This document shows, in pieces, positions 12,036 to 18,925 of a stretch of 32,000 nucleotides of DNA (position 1 is its first letter; each line of letters begins with the position of its first letter). The DNA lies in NCBI GenBank assembly GCA_049974095.1, contig JBMFJD010000001.1:1-32000 (forward strand). The letters run 5' to 3'. The position numbers were made by a program, and so were the translations under genes. Origin of the DNA: Nanopusillaceae archaeon. Lineage in GTDB: Archaea; Nanobdellota; Nanobdellia; Nanobdellales; Nanobdellaceae. The notes below the pieces were generated by a model that had not been told where the DNA came from, did not search any database, and worked only from the letters and a program-made list of their open reading frames with translations.

Positions 12036-12560
12036 ATGGAGGTCAAAGGAATAATATTGGTAGAACCAAAGAATCCTGTAAACGTAGGAACAATTGCCAG
12101 AACAATGGCAGCATTTGGAATAGAGAAATTAATAATAATATCAAATAAAGAAAAATTCAAAGAAATATCTGAAAAAGCCAGAAAAGTTTCAATGGGAGGT
12201 GTTCATGTATTGGAAAATGCTGAAATATATAGTTCATTAAAAGAAATAAATGGTAAAAAAATAGGTACAATTAGTATACATGATAATAAAAAATATAGAT
12301 TCAAATTTATTCCTATAAATAAATTAAAATATTTAAAAGGAGATTATTACTTAGTATTTGGAAGAGAGGTTAATGGATTAACATATGAAGAATTAAAAAT
12401 TTGTGATTTAATATCTACTATACCAACAAACGATAAATATGGTATATTAAATCTAGCAGTATCTGCAATAATATATATGTACGAATTAAATAAAAATAAA
12501 TTTTTAGATCTAGCAAAATATCAAAATAAATATAATATATTAAAAACCCTTAGAATCTAA
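12036..12560 (+). CDS. SPOUT (SpoU/TrmH/TrmJ-like) RNA 2'-O-methyltransferase
   Basis: Recognised from ILVEPKNPVNVGTIARTMAAFGI, LVFGREVNGLT and LNLAVSAIIYMYEL, the knot-region pattern of SpoU methyltransferases. Confidence 0.75.
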   Translation: MEVKGIILVEPKNPVNVGTIARTMAAFGIEKLIIISNKEKFKEISEKARKVSMGGVHVLENAEIYSSLKEINGKKIGTISIHDNKKYRFKFIPINKLKYLKGDYYLVFGREVNGLTYEELKICDLISTIPTNDKYGILNLAVSAIIYMYELNKNKFLDLAKYQNKYNILKTLRI

Positions 12561-14761
12561 TGAACGCCTTCAGGTATACCTTTTCTTTTCCTTATAGAAT
12601 CTATTATTTGTTGTTGCAAATCCTTTGGTACTTTTTCAAATAATTGATCTTCTAAGAACCATGCACCTTTTCCAGATGTCGCAGATCTTAATTCATCTGT
12701 AAATCCAAACATATTTGCTACAGGTACTTTTGCTTTTATTATTGCTCTTTCTTCTTCAACATTCATTTCCAATATTTGTCCTCTTCTAGATTGTAATATT
12801 GATGTAACATCTCCAACAGTTTCTGGCAGAGTATCAATTCTAATAATTTGTAATGGTTCATATAATGTTGGCTGCTCCAATATTGCTTCTTTTATTGCAT
12901 CTTTTGTTGCAGGAATAATTTGAGCAGGACCTCTATGTATTGCATCTTCATGTAATACTGCATCAATTAATTTTACTCTCATCATAATTGCAGGTTCCCA
13001 TGCCAAAGGTCCCTGATCCATTACTTCCTTAAATCCTTCTACAATATATTCAATTACTTCTGGTAAATGAACAATACCTCTTGTCATATCAATTAATACA
13101 TTTCCGTTCCATACCATTATAATTCTTCTAGCTTCTTCTTTATCAAATCCTATTTCATTAAATACTTTCCATAAATCTTCTTTCTTTATTCTTCCTTCAG
13201 GTATTTTTCCTTCCCTTATATATTCCCTTAATTTTTCATATATCCCTGGAGGCATTGGTTCAATCTGGAAATATAATTTATTATGTTTATTTGGAGATTT
13301 ACCTTCATGTATTTGTGTTACATTATTTACAGATTCTCTATATACAACAATTGGCTCTCCAACTTTTATTGGTATTCCAAAATCATTTTGTACTCTATAT
13401 TCAATAATTTGTAAATGTAAATCTCCTAATCCAGATACTAATATCTCTCCTGTATCCTTTCTTTGTTCTACTTTTATTGTTGGATCTTCTCTTTTTATTA
13501 ATTCTAATGTTTCAATTAATTTTGGTAAATCATTTGGATTTTGTGGTTCAAATGATTTTGTAACTACAGGTTCTAACCAATGTTTTAATTCTTCAAATGT
13601 TTCTACAGATTTTGGATCTTGTACTTTTCCAACAATTGTTTCTCCAGGATATAATCCTCTAATTCCAACTAATGCAATGATATTTCCTGCTTTTACAGCA
13701 TCTACATTTATTCTTTGTATTCCTTTCCATATAGCAACTTGTTGTATTTTTATTTGTCTATTTGCCTGTAATAAATATACATCATCTCCTTTACTTAATG
13801 TTCCAGAAAATATTCTAGCAGTTGCAATTTCTTGTTTTGATATCTTATCAATTATAACATTTGTTACATTAATTACTATTGGTCCATTTGGATCTAAATT
13901 TACCATTGCTTTTCCTACATCAGAATTTATATCTCCTTTCCATATATGTTGAATTCTGTATTTTTGTGCTTCAACTGGGGAAGGTAAATGTCTAATTACA
14001 ATATCCAATATAACTTTTGCTACAGGTGCTTTTTTTCTCATTTCTTCTTTTAATTTTTCCTTATCTTCTTCATATTTTTGATATATATCAATAATATCTT
14101 TGAATGAAACATTATAATTTTTCATAAATGGAACAGATAATGCCCAATGGAATTTTGCAGAACCAAATGCAACAGATCCATCATTTACATTTACCAACCA
14201 TTTACCCTTAAGTTCTGGAGGAGAATATTTATCGATTAACTTATTTACTTCAATAACAATTTTCCCTATTTTTTCCATAATTTGCTGAGGAGTTAATTTT
14301 AATTCTGTAATTGCCCTATCAGCTTTATTTATAAATAATACTGGCTTTACATATTCTTTTAAAGCAGTCCTTAATACAGATTCTGTCTGAGGCATTACTC
14401 CATCTACAAAATCTACAACTACAACAGCACCATCAATTGCTCTAGCAGCTCTTGTAACTTGTCCTGAAAATTCTACATGTCCTGGTGTATCAATCAAATT
14501 AATTAAATAATCTTGTCCTTCATATTCATGTACCATAGAAACTGCAGCCCCATATACGGTTATTTCTCTTTCTCTTTCTGTTTCATGCCACCATGTAAAC
14601 ATAGCTTCTCCTGCTAATTCTTCTGCAAGCATTCCTGCACCTGCTAATAAAGAATCAGTTAATGTTGTCTTTCCATGATGTATATGTGCTATTATTCCTA
14701 TATTTCTTATATTATTTGGATTATTCATAACTTGCAATACCCTTTCAGTTAAAGTCGCCAT
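12557..14761 (-). CDS. fusA: Translation elongation factor 2 (aEF-2)
   Basis: GTPase motifs are AHIHHGKTT, DTPGHVEF and NKAD. The diphthamide-site loop HEDAIHRGPAQ is present. The product is 734 aa. Its stop overlaps the convergent SpoU gene's stop (12557-12560). Confidence 0.97.
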   Translation of the reverse strand: MATLTERVLQVMNNPNNIRNIGIIAHIHHGKTTLTDSLLAGAGMLAEELAGEAMFTWWHETEREREITVYGAAVSMVHEYEGQDYLINLIDTPGHVEFSGQVTRAARAIDGAVVVVDFVDGVMPQTESVLRTALKEYVKPVLFINKADRAITELKLTPQQIMEKIGKIVIEVNKLIDKYSPPELKGKWLVNVNDGSVAFGSAKFHWALSVPFMKNYNVSFKDIIDIYQKYEEDKEKLKEEMRKKAPVAKVILDIVIRHLPSPVEAQKYRIQHIWKGDINSDVGKAMVNLDPNGPIVINVTNVIIDKISKQEIATARIFSGTLSKGDDVYLLQANRQIKIQQVAIWKGIQRINVDAVKAGNIIALVGIRGLYPGETIVGKVQDPKSVETFEELKHWLEPVVTKSFEPQNPNDLPKLIETLELIKREDPTIKVEQRKDTGEILVSGLGDLHLQIIEYRVQNDFGIPIKVGEPIVVYRESVNNVTQIHEGKSPNKHNKLYFQIEPMPPGIYEKLREYIREGKIPEGRIKKEDLWKVFNEIGFDKEEARRIIMVWNGNVLIDMTRGIVHLPEVIEYIVEGFKEVMDQGPLAWEPAIMMRVKLIDAVLHEDAIHRGPAQIIPATKDAIKEAILEQPTLYEPLQIIRIDTLPETVGDVTSILQSRRGQILEMNVEEERAIIKAKVPVANMFGFTDELRSATSGKGAWFLEDQLFEKVPKDLQQQIIDSIRKRKGIPEGVH

Positions 14762-15030: not shown

Positions 15031-15645
15031 ATGAGAACGAATATCAAACTAATTATTTCTGGAATATTATCATTATTTGCTTTGTTTTTTCTTCTAAGTT
15101 TATCAAATATAAATAATTATCAAATAAAAAATGTTGCTTTGAATATAAATAATCAAAAAATAAGTGCAAAACAAATTTATTTTAATATTTATGGTTGTTA
15201 TGAATTATACTCAAATAATAGTTATTTTATAATTTATCCTATTGAATCTGCATTAAATTTTGAAATAATTCCTAAAGAATATATTAATACTTCTAAAATA
15301 ATTATATGTAACGAAAATGTTATATATAATAAAGAATTAGAAATTTGCACCCCAACATTTTGTCCAATGATATGTAATATTGAAGGATGCTATCCTTGTC
15401 ATCCAACATGTTATAATGAAACATTTTATATAAATATTTCATATCCTGTAATAATTATTACAAATTCCTTTAATTATAATATTTCTAATATAAATTTAGC
15501 TATTTTAGATACTTATGTGGTTAAATATAACAATAATTTATATTGTATTGGCCAATGTAATATAAATATAATTAAATTACCAGATAATTATTTGTATAAT
15601 TTAATATCAGAAATTATTAATAGTATTCCTATTATAACGGTATGA
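15031..15645 (+). CDS. N-terminally anchored, Cys-rich extracellular protein (paralogue of 7953..8471)
   Basis: The N-terminus is MRTNIKLIISGILSLFALFFLLSL. The protein has 12 Cys, including CTPTFCPMICNIEGCYPCHPTC, is rich in N/Y/I and carries many N-x-S/T sequons. The C-terminal LYCIGQCNINIIKL resembles SGICEGNCILNLQK of 7953..8471. Confidence 0.5.
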   Translation: MRTNIKLIISGILSLFALFFLLSLSNINNYQIKNVALNINNQKISAKQIYFNIYGCYELYSNNSYFIIYPIESALNFEIIPKEYINTSKIIICNENVIYNKELEICTPTFCPMICNIEGCYPCHPTCYNETFYINISYPVIIITNSFNYNISNINLAILDTYVVKYNNNLYCIGQCNINIIKLPDNYLYNLISEIINSIPIITV

Positions 15646-16307
15646 ATTTAACAGTATTATATTCTGGAGGAAAAGATTCAAATTATTCATTATATATTTC
15701 ATCAAAATACCATAAAATTTCTTGTTTATTAAATATAATTCCTGAAAATAATGAAAGTTATTTATACCATTATATAAATTTTGATATAACAAAATTACAA
15801 TCAAAAGCGCTAGAAATTCCTTTAGAAACATTTTATGTAAATAAAGATGAAGAAAAAACATTAGAAGACGCATTAAAATATTTAAAAGAGAAATATAATG
15901 TTGGGGGAGTTGTAACTGGAGCAATAAGATCAATATATCAGGCAACAAGATTTCAAAAAATATGTAAAAAACTAAATTTATGGTGCTTTAATCCTATTTG
16001 GTTAAAAAATGAAAAAGAATATTTGTTTGAATTATTAAAAAATAATTTTGAATTTATAATTACAGGATGGTATACATATCCGCTGGATATAAATATTTTA
16101 GGAAAAGAAGTGAATGAAGAAATAATAAATAAATTAATTGAATATGGAGAAGAATATAAAATAAATATTGCTGGAGAAGGAGGAGAATATGAAACAACAG
16201 TATTATATCAACCTTTATTTAAGAAAAAAATTATAATAGATGATTATGAAATAAGGGTAGAAAAAAATTATGCAGAATATATAATTAAAAAAGCTCATTT
16301 AGAATGA
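15642..16307 (+). CDS. dph6: Diphthine--ammonia ligase (Dph6 / MJ0570-type PP-loop ATPase, DUF71)
   Basis: The PP-loop is VLYSGGKDSNYSLY. NESYLYH, TGAIRSIYQ and IAGEGGEYETTVL are hallmarks of the Dph6/MJ0570 family. Confidence 0.8.
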   Translation: MNLTVLYSGGKDSNYSLYISSKYHKISCLLNIIPENNESYLYHYINFDITKLQSKALEIPLETFYVNKDEEKTLEDALKYLKEKYNVGGVVTGAIRSIYQATRFQKICKKLNLWCFNPIWLKNEKEYLFELLKNNFEFIITGWYTYPLDINILGKEVNEEIINKLIEYGEEYKINIAGEGGEYETTVLYQPLFKKKIIIDDYEIRVEKNYAEYIIKKAHLE

Positions 16308-16831
16308 TTGGAATTATATATACAAATAAAGAAGAATTATCTAAATATGAATTTTTATATCCAGTAGAAGAAATATTAAAAGAGAAAAATATAAAATATA
16401 AAATATTTTCTTATAAGGAAAAAATAAATGAAAATATTGAAAAAATAATAATAACAGGAACTGCAATAATGGATTTTGACTATTTAAACTATTTAGATAA
16501 TTTTAGATTTATAATAGAAAATAATATAAAAACATTGGCAATATGTTCTGGCTCTCAAATTTTAACAAAATTATTAGGATATAATTTAATTGAAAAAGAG
16601 ATTATTGGAAAATATAGAGTAAAAATAATAAAAGAAAATAAGTTAATAGATAAAGATTTTGATGCATATTTTATTATAACAAAAATACCAGAAATAGATA
16701 ATAAATTTGAAATTTATGGAGTGATAGAGAATATCCCAGCATTATTTAATTATAAAAATATATATTTTTCTCTTTTCCATCCGGAAGTTTTAAATAAAGA
16801 AATTATAATAAATTTTATAGATAATATATAA
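16304..16831 (+). CDS. Class I glutamine amidotransferase-like protein
   Basis: TLAICSGSQIL gives the nucleophile elbow (G/A-x-C-x-G-x-Q) and FSLFHPEV gives the His-Glu of the triad. The 175-aa length resembles stand-alone archaeal GATase subunits. The start overlaps dph6 at an ATGA junction. Confidence 0.65.
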   Translation: MIGIIYTNKEELSKYEFLYPVEEILKEKNIKYKIFSYKEKINENIEKIIITGTAIMDFDYLNYLDNFRFIIENNIKTLAICSGSQILTKLLGYNLIEKEIIGKYRVKIIKENKLIDKDFDAYFIITKIPEIDNKFEIYGVIENIPALFNYKNIYFSLFHPEVLNKEIIINFIDNI

Positions 16832-16832
16832 A

Positions 16833-16887
16833 CCCCTATCAAGGGTGACCTTAGATTATATGAAAAGGTTGAGTTGATAGGGGTACA
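16833..16887 (+). ncRNA. Structured hairpin RNA, possibly a single-hairpin H/ACA-like guide
   Basis: A perfect 10-bp lower stem pairs CCCCTATCAA (16833-16842) with TTGATAGGGG (16874-16883). An inner 5-bp stem pairs ACCTT (16848-16852) with AAGGT (16865-16869). These leave unpaired GGGTG and TGAG strands as a candidate pocket. The apical loop aGA-ttatat-GAa could form tandem sheared G.A pairs (a K-loop). ACA at 16885-16887 lies 15 nt from the inner stem. The region is a GC-rich island starting 2 nt after the upstream stop codon. Confidence 0.35.
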
Positions 16888-16889
16888 TA

Positions 16890-16940
16890 ATGAGGATACC
16901 GTCCCAGTCTGATATAATGATGACGGAGAGACGACTCTGA
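16890..16940 (+). ncRNA. C/D-box sRNA (2'-O-methylation guide)
   Basis: The sequence reads AUGAGGA (C box, 16890-16896; one mismatch to RUGAUGA) - UACCGUCCCAGU (12 nt) - CUGA (D', 16909-16912) - UAUA - AUGAUGA (C', 16917-16923) - CGGAGAGACGACU (13 nt) - CUGA (D, 16937-16940). Confidence 0.7.
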
Positions 16941-16987
16941 TAAAATTTAAAATATTAAATATGAAATAAAATAAGAAAAATTAAAAA

Positions 16988-18925
16988 CTATTCTTCTACT
17001 TTTTCCCTTCCTTTTCCTCCTTTTATTCTAGATTCCGCTAATATTGATGCAATAATAATAATTGCAACTATTACCAATATCCAGAATATTATTTCTTCTG
17101 ATGGTATTGTTAATTGCGTTGTTGTTCCATATGCTGTATATGTTTGATTTAATGTAAATAATACTTTTCCTGTATTTTGATCAATTATATCTACATATAC
17201 TGTTACATTATTAGATTCTGCTGTTACATTTAATGGTATTTGCTCTGAATATGTACCTCCAATTTGTACTGTTTGTTGTTCTGGATATACTTTTCCGCCT
17301 ACAGCATATGCTTGTACTAATAAATTATATATTTGCGTTGTGTTTGCTGATAATACTAAATATATTGTTGTATTTTTACCAATTGTTAATTGTTTATATC
17401 CAATCAATGATGCTGTAATTGGATAATATACTGGAACTGTTCCATTTACATATAAATTATATGTATATTGCTGTGCTATTCCATTATAATTAAATACAAA
17501 TGTTATTGGATAATATCCTGCTTCTAATCCTTCTGGTATATATATTACTACTGGTAATTGTGTTGGCGTATTTGGAGATAATGTTATTGTTGATAATTGC
17601 TGAAGCATATTTAATTGCTGTGATTCTACCATTGGTGTTACTTGTAAATCCATTGGTAGATTTGATTCTAATTCTAAGTACAATTCTACAAAGCTTCCTG
17701 GTTTTACATTAAATGTATTTGCATATACATTTAATACATTTACAGGTTGTATATTTTGCTCATTTACAGTTATTTGATATGTATATTCATTTATTTCTAC
17801 CCCATTTTCATATAAGTATAATATAATTGTATAATATCCCGGAGATAATCTAATAGTACTAAATGGTATTATTATTTCTCCTTGTTGTTGTGGACTTATT
17901 AATTGTGAATTTTCTAAATTATATATTAAATTTCCATATTGATCATATAATAATAATTGTATTGTTGCATTTACTGTTTGATATCCTGGATTTTCTAATA
18001 ATAAATTTATGTTATATAATGCAGATCCTAAATTTGTTAATTTATTGAAGTTTGGTGATATTGATAATACCTCTAATTGCCCTCCATATTGATTATTTGA
18101 TATATAGAATGAATCTGTTGTATATTGTGTTAATACTTGTCCATTTACTAGTACTGCATTTAATTGTTCTGTTATATACATTTGTCCTTCTACATTTTGT
18201 AAATAGTAATTTGGTATTGACATTGTTACTAAGTTTTCTCCTGGTTGTAAATTAATATTTTCTTGTGTTTGATATACAATATTTCCTTGTGAATTATATA
18301 ATGTTAATGTTAAGGTTGCAGATTGAATATTTGTTTCTGTATTTTGTACATATACTACTGATTGTACATTTAATCCATATTCCTGTACTTGCTGTTGAGA
18401 AATTACCTGAGGTAATTGTACAATAGATAATGATAAATTATATGGCAAATATACAATTGAATAATATTGTTGTTGCGACAAGAGTTTTTCAGTATTGTTT
18501 TGATATATTAATGCTACTGTTGCATTTACTGTAATATTACTTACTGTAGTAGTTATCTCTGTACATACATAATTTGTACATGTTTGTACTACTTGCTGTT
18601 GCTGTGCTAAATTTAATATTTGTGGATTTACTGTAATTGTATATATATTATTTCCTGTATATACAGCTATTGGTTCATAATATTGATATATTAAATTATT
18701 ATTTGGTCCATATATATTGAAATACAAATATGCTTCATATGGTTTTTGTTCTACTCCCAATAATTTTACTGTAAATGTCAATCCATTGCTAATATAATTT
18801 CCTAATAATGTTGATGCTTGTGGTTCTATTACTATTTGTTGTGATTTTACTGCAAATGCTACTATTGCTAATGCTAAAAGAAAGCCAAATATCTTTTTAA
18901 ATGTTACTGCAAATTTGTTATCCAT
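16988..18925 (-). CDS. Cell-surface (S-layer-like) glycoprotein candidate with a C-terminal membrane anchor
   Basis: It has a signal peptide (MDNKFAVTFKKIFGFLLALAIVAFAVKSQQ) and a C-terminal TM helix with a basic tail (IIFWILVIVAIIIIASILAESRIKGGKGREKVEE). In between are about 575 aa rich in Q/N/Y/T/V with repeated beta-sandwich (CARDB-like) patterns, for example ATLTLTLYNSQGNIVYQ...LQPGENLVTMSIP and VNATIQLLLYDQYGNLIYN...LSPGYYTIILYLY. Sequons are numerous and charged residues very few. Confidence 0.6.
   Translation of the reverse strand: MDNKFAVTFKKIFGFLLALAIVAFAVKSQQIVIEPQASTLLGNYISNGLTFTVKLLGVEQKPYEAYLYFNIYGPNNNLIYQYYEPIAVYTGNNIYTITVNPQILNLAQQQQVVQTCTNYVCTEITTTVSNITVNATVALIYQNNTEKLLSQQQYYSIVYLPYNLSLSIVQLPQVISQQQVQEYGLNVQSVVYVQNTETNIQSATLTLTLYNSQGNIVYQTQENINLQPGENLVTMSIPNYYLQNVEGQMYITEQLNAVLVNGQVLTQYTTDSFYISNNQYGGQLEVLSISPNFNKLTNLGSALYNINLLLENPGYQTVNATIQLLLYDQYGNLIYNLENSQLISPQQQGEIIIPFSTIRLSPGYYTIILYLYENGVEINEYTYQITVNEQNIQPVNVLNVYANTFNVKPGSFVELYLELESNLPMDLQVTPMVESQQLNMLQQLSTITLSPNTPTQLPVVIYIPEGLEAGYYPITFVFNYNGIAQQYTYNLYVNGTVPVYYPITASLIGYKQLTIGKNTTIYLVLSANTTQIYNLLVQAYAVGGKVYPEQQTVQIGGTYSEQIPLNVTAESNNVTVYVDIIDQNTGKVLFTLNQTYTAYGTTTQLTIPSEEIIFWILVIVAIIIIASILAESRIKGGKGREKVEE

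Follow-up and report, generated by a model that had tools for sequence, protein, structure and literature searches.

A candidate two-subunit, glutamine-dependent diphthamide synthetase encoded by linked Dph6 and class I glutamine amidotransferase genes in Nanobdellota and other Archaea

The first 32,000 nucleotides (nt) of contig JBMFJD010000001.1 from a Nanopusillaceae archaeon (GCA_049974095.1; this stretch is hereafter the window) carry a gene for Dph6, the diphthine-ammonia ligase of diphthamide synthesis, whose stop codon overlaps the start of a gene for a class I glutamine amidotransferase (GATase). An earlier reading of the letters alone (the original prediction) proposed that the two genes encode a candidate glutamine-dependent diphthamide synthetase, a proposal that comparative genomics supports through the linkage of the genes, their fusion in other lineages and the separateness of the GATase family, as far as sequence comparison can do so. 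The window has a G+C content of 23.6% and its proteins share 71 to 94% identity with their counterparts in Nanobdellota that have been cultured (strain YN1, Nanobdella aerobiophila and Nanopusillus acidilobi), which places its source among the small ectosymbiotic archaea of this group. The pair comprises the following features, lengths being given in amino acids (aa) and evidence in brackets:

15642-16307, + strand: Dph6, diphthine-ammonia ligase, proposed synthetase subunit, 221 aa (open reading frame (ORF), motifs, TIGR03679 and PF01902)
16304-16831, + strand: class I (triad) GATase, proposed glutaminase subunit, 175 aa (PF00117, catalytic triad and AlphaFold2 fold)
16304-16307, + strand: ATGA junction, the ATG of the GATase gene lying within the overlap with the Dph6 TGA (read from the sequence)

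The two ORFs overlap by 4 nt and lie in different reading frames, and the junction with a 175-aa GATase is as originally described. The Dph6 hallmarks SGGKDS and GEGGEYET cited in the original prediction are likewise borne out. The protein carries YSGGKDS at residues 7 to 13 and AGEGGEYETTV near its C-terminus, and it exceeds the cut-off of the archaeal Dph6 equivalog TIGR03679 (Dph6_archaeal; 241 bits, cut-off 197.3) as well as that of PF01902 (191 bits, cut-off 23.2). Residues 3 to 221 align to the solved Dph6 proteins PF0828 and PH1257 with 176 and 170 bits respectively. Scores against the paralogue models PAB0415_fam (56.5 bits) and TTX_0299 (45.6 bits) are far under their cut-offs of 250 bits each. 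By sequence, the protein is a PP-loop ATP pyrophosphatase and a full-length orthologue of stand-alone archaeal Dph6.

The catalytic residues attributed to the GATase in the original prediction, a cysteine in AICSGSQ and a His-Glu pair in FHPEV, correspond to Cys81 (AICSGSQ) and to His159 and Glu161 (LFHPEV), and all three are invariant in alignments of 10 close and 129 broad family members. Glu16, Phe17, Pro20, Gly52 and Asp57 are likewise invariant over the 129 members, and conservation across the whole family extends to Gln85, which contacts glutamine, and to Gly52 in the oxyanion region. The match of the window GATase to PF00117 is marginal (28.9 bits, cut-off 22.8), whereas other members of the family score 40 to 77 bits. 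Its AlphaFold2 model, built from the 129-sequence alignment, has a predicted local distance difference test score (pLDDT) of 95.5 and a predicted TM-score (pTM) of 0.92, and the best PDB matches to this model in Foldseek are class I glutaminase subunits, with archaeal GuaAA first (TM-score 0.82, 18 to 23% identity, TMq up to 0.83). A search of 5.8 billion proteins with the single GATase sequence returned only ten relatives. Profile searches yielded far more, one of them giving 149 representatives among 1.84 billion at E <= 1e-30 and another 1868 clusters at E <= 1e-10.

Linkage and fusion of Dph6 and the GATase

For a census of gene neighbourhoods, loci were chosen by GATase similarity alone, using one genome per archaeal and bacterial species. 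This gave 435 matches, the best 80 of which were retrieved, and the position of Dph6 at these 80 loci was scored by tblastn together with an ORF census. Judged by their record titles, the loci comprise 12 of Nanobdella/Nanopusillus type, 18 Woesearchaeota, 4 Pacearchaeota, 10 other Nanoarchaeia, 3 Aenigmatarchaeota, 9 Bathyarchaeia, 5 Nitrososphaeria, 7 metagenome-assembled genomes of Methanosarcinales, one each from Archaeoglobus, Poseidoniia, Thermococci and an unclassified euryarchaeote, 6 unclassified archaea and 2 contigs labelled bacterial. Dph6 was found upstream of the GATase gene and on the same strand at 75 of the 80 loci, as expected of the proposed pairing. It is directly upstream at 61 loci, 47 of which have the Dph6 TGA overlapping the GATase ATG, and upstream at a distance of 61 to 300 nt at three more; at ten loci it lies 0.5 to 4.5 kb upstream with unrelated genes inserted, and at one (L059) the two are fused in a single ORF. 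Dph6 was not found at five loci, at three of which the upstream DNA is shorter than 900 nt and too short for an assessment. The linkage is therefore strong, but not absolute. Ten Dph6 partners from different phyla all score above the TIGR03679 cut-off (221 to 287 bits against 197.3), indicating that they are true Dph6 proteins rather than the B12-linked DUF71 paralogue.

Clustering of all flanking ORFs at the 80 loci revealed no second conserved neighbour, as no such cluster was present at more than 15 loci and the largest clusters were antisense shadow ORFs inside the pair or lineage-specific neighbours. A third conserved subunit was also considered and rejected, since the genes inserted between Dph6 and GATase (among them EndoIII-like, MazG-like, shikimate-kinase-like, SIMPL-like and ExoIII-like genes) are unrelated to one another; one relative (L003) has a 175-aa ORF in this position. 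A histidyl-tRNA synthetase-like gene lies convergent to and just 3' of the GATase gene at 11 of the 80 loci and at L003, all of Woesearchaeota or Nanoarchaeia type (L003, L049, L051, L053, L057, L061, L064, L070, L073, L075, L076 and L081), which is probably lineage synteny. Both contigs labelled bacterial have archaeal-type GATases. One of them (L035, 'Candidatus Acidiferrales bacterium') carries the whole pair and the other (L051, 'bacterium CTOTU11692') contains only part of Dph6, at the edge of the contig, and both are likely misbinned archaeal contigs.

The two proteins also occur as a single chain. Four representatives from the GATase profile search, of 438 to 470 aa, have an N-terminal Dph6 and a C-terminal GATase domain. 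The best 120 matches to a profile of these four fusions (388 to 689 aa) all contain PF01902 and 119 of them also contain PF00117; more than 110 protein clusters are single-chain Dph6-GATase fusions. Their sources are Methanothrix, Micrarchaeota, Aenigmarchaeota, Woesearchaeota and Nanobdellota, and many of them are named 'diphthine--ammonia ligase' at NCBI. Three fusions (L087, L088 and L089) were confirmed as uninterrupted genes on their contigs, one of which is 3.0 Mb long. A rough neighbour-joining tree of GATase domains places the fused proteins in 14 distinct clades interspersed with the split ones, a pattern that suggests that fusion or fission has happened repeatedly. The AlphaFold2 model of a Methanothrix fusion (113-row paired alignment; pLDDT 91.9) has a disordered linker at residues 230 to 252 and a pTM of 0.90, a value that bears only indirectly on domain docking, and it suggests that the two domains are packed in a fixed arrangement. 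In Foldseek the N-terminal half of this model was matched by PF0828 and PH1257 and its C-terminal half by GuaAA, and this search returned no PDB entry spanning both halves.

Two further observations were made on the fusions. In Methanothrix (L087, 4501-5997; L088, 3408-4925) the fusion gene lies directly 3' of a gene of ~500 aa with CbiA, AAA_26 and GATase_3 domains, a corrinoid- or F430-type amidase, and this neighbour, which was not seen in the other lineages examined, may reflect lineage synteny or a grouping of amidotransferases. A single cluster (P0362, 689 aa) is a triple fusion in which Dph6 and GATase are followed by a C-terminal class I S-adenosylmethionine-dependent methyltransferase domain of the Methyltransf_11/25/31 type, not of the Dph5 fold.

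The GATase family and its relation to GuaAA

GuaAA, the glutaminase subunit of the split archaeal GMP synthase (GuaAA and GuaAB), comes closest to the GATase in both profile and fold comparisons (TM-score 0.74 to 0.83), and members of the GATase family appear in databases as 'GMP synthase (glutamine-hydrolysing)', 'GMP synthase-like glutamine amidotransferase', 'gamma-glutamyl-gamma-aminobutyrate hydrolase family' or 'hypothetical'. We therefore weighed whether the window GATase might be the GuaAA of its organism, with GuaAB encoded elsewhere and the adjacency to Dph6 a coincidence, a reading that this closeness in sequence and fold and these public labels would favour. The window protein, however, scores 27 bits against TIGR00888 (cut-off 172) and 22.9 bits against PRK00758 (cut-off 198). 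The GuaAA models give best E-values of ~1e-25 to 1e-26 over 137 members of the family, the best members reaching ~90 bits, and the GATase domains of the tested fusions reach 78 to 90 bits, in each case under both cut-offs. In the reverse test, the solved GuaAA proteins PH1346 and MJ1575 score ~78 bits on the GATase-family profile as against ~240 bits for the best 120 family members. The family further differs from GuaAA in having an invariant E-F-x-x-P near the N-terminus, CGT in place of SGGP and an E-I-G motif, and in lacking a 4-residue insert after FHPEV. On these profile comparisons the GATase family is distinct from canonical GuaAA, though GuaAA is its nearest named family, and the grouping with GuaAA that the original prediction had considered as an alternative was not observed.

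The gene content of a close relative bears on the same question. The complete gene table of N. acidilobi contains the Dph6-GATase pair in the same order as in the window, Dph6 being Nps_03125 and the GATase Nps_03130 (Supplementary Data 1 of PMC4935971). The latter is annotated as arCOG00090, 'GMP synthase - Glutamine amidotransferase domain' (PMC4935971), and is the only entry in the table in which 'GMP' appears. CTP synthase, Dph5 and Dph2 (split into two genes) are all listed, and a single annotated 'PP-loop superfamily ATPase' could finish the diphthamide pathway. GuaAB, NAD synthase, asparagine synthase and glutamine synthetase are all absent from the complete N. acidilobi gene table, and GuaAB is also absent from the 32-kb window. 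Nucleotide biosynthesis is lacking in these organisms according to both the N. acidilobi and the YN1 studies (PMC4935971; PMC11420986). With no alternative synthetase and no nucleotide biosynthesis, Dph6 is the sole visible ammonia-requiring synthetase in N. acidilobi without a glutaminase of its own, and the other possible partners envisaged in the original prediction have thus not come to light in this relative. Taken with the presence of Dph6 upstream at 75 of the 80 loci and the more than 110 fused clusters, these scores and gene contents largely refute the GuaAA reading, which we regard as exceedingly improbable.

A second alternative accepts the partnership with Dph6 but assigns the amidation to a carboxylate other than that of the elongation factor EF-2, either on a small molecule or on a corrinoid, as proposed for the DUF71-B12 subgroup. 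The DUF71 family is indeed not isofunctional (PMC3541065), and the Methanothrix fusion directly follows a gene for a corrinoid-type amidase. This neighbour is, however, restricted to Methanothrix among the contexts examined, and the DUF71 domain is clearly of the Dph6 type, so that a link to B12 metabolism was rejected; both the window Dph6 and the ten tested partners pass the Dph6 equivalog cut-off and score far under those of the paralogue families. Moreover, N. acidilobi has Dph2 and Dph5 with only one PP-loop ATPase fit to complete the pathway, and cofactor biosynthesis is lacking in these reduced genomes. Amidation of another substrate consequently appears very unlikely.

The GATase could also be a genuine partner of Dph6 without being its ammonia supplier, for instance as a Peptidase C26-like enzyme (a gamma-glutamyl hydrolase or a peptidase), as an amidase that regulates or reverses a step, or as a non-catalytic aid to EF-2 binding. 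Many members of the GATase family have weak Peptidase_C26 matches and the Foldseek lists include gamma-glutamyl peptidase 1, while stand-alone Dph6 proteins exist and the solved Dph6 structures crystallised without a partner. The conservation of the triad, Gln85 and Gly52 across the family nevertheless argues against a non-catalytic role, and amidotransferase subunits, not peptidases, are the top matches at each level of comparison. The combination of an ammonia-requiring, adenylating PP-loop enzyme with a glutaminase is, in addition, the canonical design of amidotransferases. We consider a role other than ammonia supply unlikely.

Other features around the pair

The pair is surrounded by the following features:

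15031-15645, + strand: Cys-rich 204-aa ORF with an N-terminal membrane segment (ORF; no Pfam family)
12557-14761, - strand: EF-2, the substrate protein (ORF and HEDAIHRGPAQ motif)
16988-18925, - strand: likely surface protein of 645 aa (composition and membrane segments)
16832-16945, + strand: intergenic, G+C-richer stretch 3' of the GATase gene (hairpin and C/D-box small RNA (sRNA)-like unit)

The start of Dph6 also lies in an ATGA overlap (15642-15645), in this case with the stop of the 204-aa ORF upstream, which went unremarked in the original prediction. The 204-aa ORF probably opens the transcript that also carries the Dph6-GATase pair. Its homologs, with 33 to 44% identity, are restricted to the Nanobdella/Nanopusillus relatives (L001-L017), none being present at the other loci, and the N. 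acidilobi counterpart is annotated as an uncharacterized protein with one transmembrane segment. Judged by this distribution, the ORF is outside the conserved Dph6-GATase module.

The original prediction also pointed to the gene for EF-2, less than 1 kb away and with an intact diphthamide-site histidine. Both observations hold, the end of the EF-2 gene being 881 nt from the start of Dph6 and His609 being intact in HEDAIHRGPAQ. As evidence of function, however, the proximity did not stand, because EF-2 adjoins the pair only in the Nanobdella/Nanopusillus group; we therefore regard this lineage-specific linkage as weak evidence and discount it in assigning a function to the pair.

The intergenic stretch at 16832-16945 has a G+C content of 31%, as against 17 to 22% in the adjoining Dph6 and GATase genes, and is near-invariant across Nanobdella, YN1, Nanobsidianus and Nanopusillus. 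It contains a ~52-nt hairpin followed by ACA and then by a C/D-box sRNA-like unit with the order AUGAGGA, 12 nt, CUGA, AUGAUGA, ~13 nt, CUGA. Base differences between genera occur on both arms of the outer stem of the hairpin and appear by eye to be compensatory, although these pairs were not predicted by alignment folding. The first guide of the sRNA-like unit (ACCGUCCCAG) is conserved and the second varies. Rfam gave only sub-threshold C/D-box matches on this stretch (SNORD31, 22.5 bits; sR12, 16 bits). The 645-aa protein encoded beyond it on the opposite strand has a high content of Gln, Asn, Thr and Val, a signal or membrane segment at its N-terminus and a membrane anchor at its C-terminus. 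It is likely a surface protein of the symbiont, and the gene at the syntenic position in N. acidilobi carries the annotation 'S-layer domain'.

Proposed reaction, precedents and significance

We propose that the gene pair probably encodes a two-subunit, glutamine-hydrolysing diphthamide synthetase, a reading in which we have good confidence. Dph6 would bind diphthine-EF-2 and adenylate the diphthine carboxylate with ATP, while the GATase would hydrolyse glutamine via a thioester at Cys81, assisted by His159 and Glu161. The freed ammonia would then pass to the Dph6 active site and displace AMP, forming diphthamide. The overlap of stop and start codons would fit coupled translation, through which the two subunits would tend to be made in equal amounts. 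Analogy to GMP, NAD and asparagine synthetases suggests that the split subunits assemble into a complex, that ammonia is channelled and that glutamine is used in vivo. Glutamine-dependent NAD+ synthetase and asparagine synthetase B each combine an adenylating PP-loop domain with a glutaminase and pass ammonia between the two sites, but differ from the present pair in that their glutaminases are of the nitrilase and N-terminal nucleophile (Ntn) types, respectively, and their substrates are small molecules. A closer precedent is the split archaeal GMP synthase, in which a small class I GATase of ~180 aa also serves an adenylating PP-loop enzyme; here, by contrast, Dph6 takes the place of GuaAB and the substrate would be a side chain of a protein (diphthine in EF-2) rather than XMP. 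The logic of the proposed enzyme is thus conventional.

Several points weigh against this proposal. Characterised Dph6 works on ammonium alone, and, by analogy with other amidotransferases, high ammonium could make the GATase unnecessary in vitro. The GATase family is known from sequences and models alone, and the fusion model addresses docking only indirectly, as indicated above. Ten loci have other genes between Dph6 and the GATase, and two of those at which no Dph6 was found (L049 and L056) do have 1.1 to 1.4 kb of upstream DNA. Neither Nps_03125 (Dph6) nor Nps_03130 (GATase) has a proteomic abundance value in the N. acidilobi co-culture dataset (PMC4935971).

Stand-alone Dph6 proteins (PF0828, PH1257 and yeast Dph6, EC 6.3.1.14) share full-length orthology and the same motifs with the window protein, but are described as users of free ammonium and have no described class I GATase partner, and many eukaryotic Dph6 proteins have C-terminal RidA/YjgF domains instead of a GATase. 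It has previously been noted that the ammonia source of Dph6 may vary, with AsnB-DUF71 fusions in a few archaea and RidA domains in eukaryotes (de Crecy-Lagard et al., 2012; PMC3541065), and a class I GATase partner is not mentioned in that study. The AsnB-DUF71 fusions resemble the present pair in that a glutamine-hydrolysing domain could feed ammonia to Dph6 (PMC3541065). They differ in that their glutaminase is of class II (Ntn type), is N-terminal and is accompanied by a second PP-loop domain, and in that they occur in few genomes, whereas the partner described here is of class I, is encoded downstream or lies C-terminally, and was detected in no fewer than 435 species-level genomes and 1868 protein clusters. 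The archaeal list of Narrowe et al. (2018) consists of Dph2, Dph5 and Dph6 only, and a 2026 Nanobdellota genome preprint makes no mention of diphthamide, diphthine, Dph6, glutaminases or amidotransferases. Full-text literature searches, in which subscription journals were partly covered so that an earlier mention is possible, returned only the 2012 DUF71 study on the subject and no description of a pairing between Dph6 and a class I GATase, which has apparently never been described before. The remark in the original prediction that no described glutamine-hydrolysing partner was known to it thus appears to stand for class I GATases, but not for the glutamine idea as such, which was already proposed in 2012 for the rare AsnB fusions (PMC3541065).

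The in-cell source of the diphthamide nitrogen has so far been left open, the rare AsnB fusions and the eukaryotic RidA domains being the published suggestions that we found. A dedicated class I glutaminase partner across DPANN, TACK and euryarchaeal lineages offers, for many archaea, a specific answer that can be tested. The finding further corrects a widespread misannotation, since the names 'GMP synthase', 'GMP synthase-like' and 'gamma-glutamyl-GABA hydrolase' may wrongly imply purine synthesis in reduced symbionts. More tentatively, glutamine rather than free ammonium might supply the diphthamide nitrogen under physiological conditions in a large part of the Archaea, and the Dph6-GATase holoenzyme might be old, possibly ancestral, and have been repeatedly lost or replaced by stand-alone Dph6, AsnB fusions or, in eukaryotes, RidA domains; we regard this broader scenario as possible but doubtful. 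If true, it would call for a new glutamine-hydrolysing EC entry beside 6.3.1.14, and 'GMP synthase-like' annotations would be wrong in thousands of archaeal genomes. For the Nanobdellota themselves, the proposed function would mean that genomes of ~600 kb retain a second gene solely for finishing one protein modification, underlining the weight of diphthamide for these organisms.

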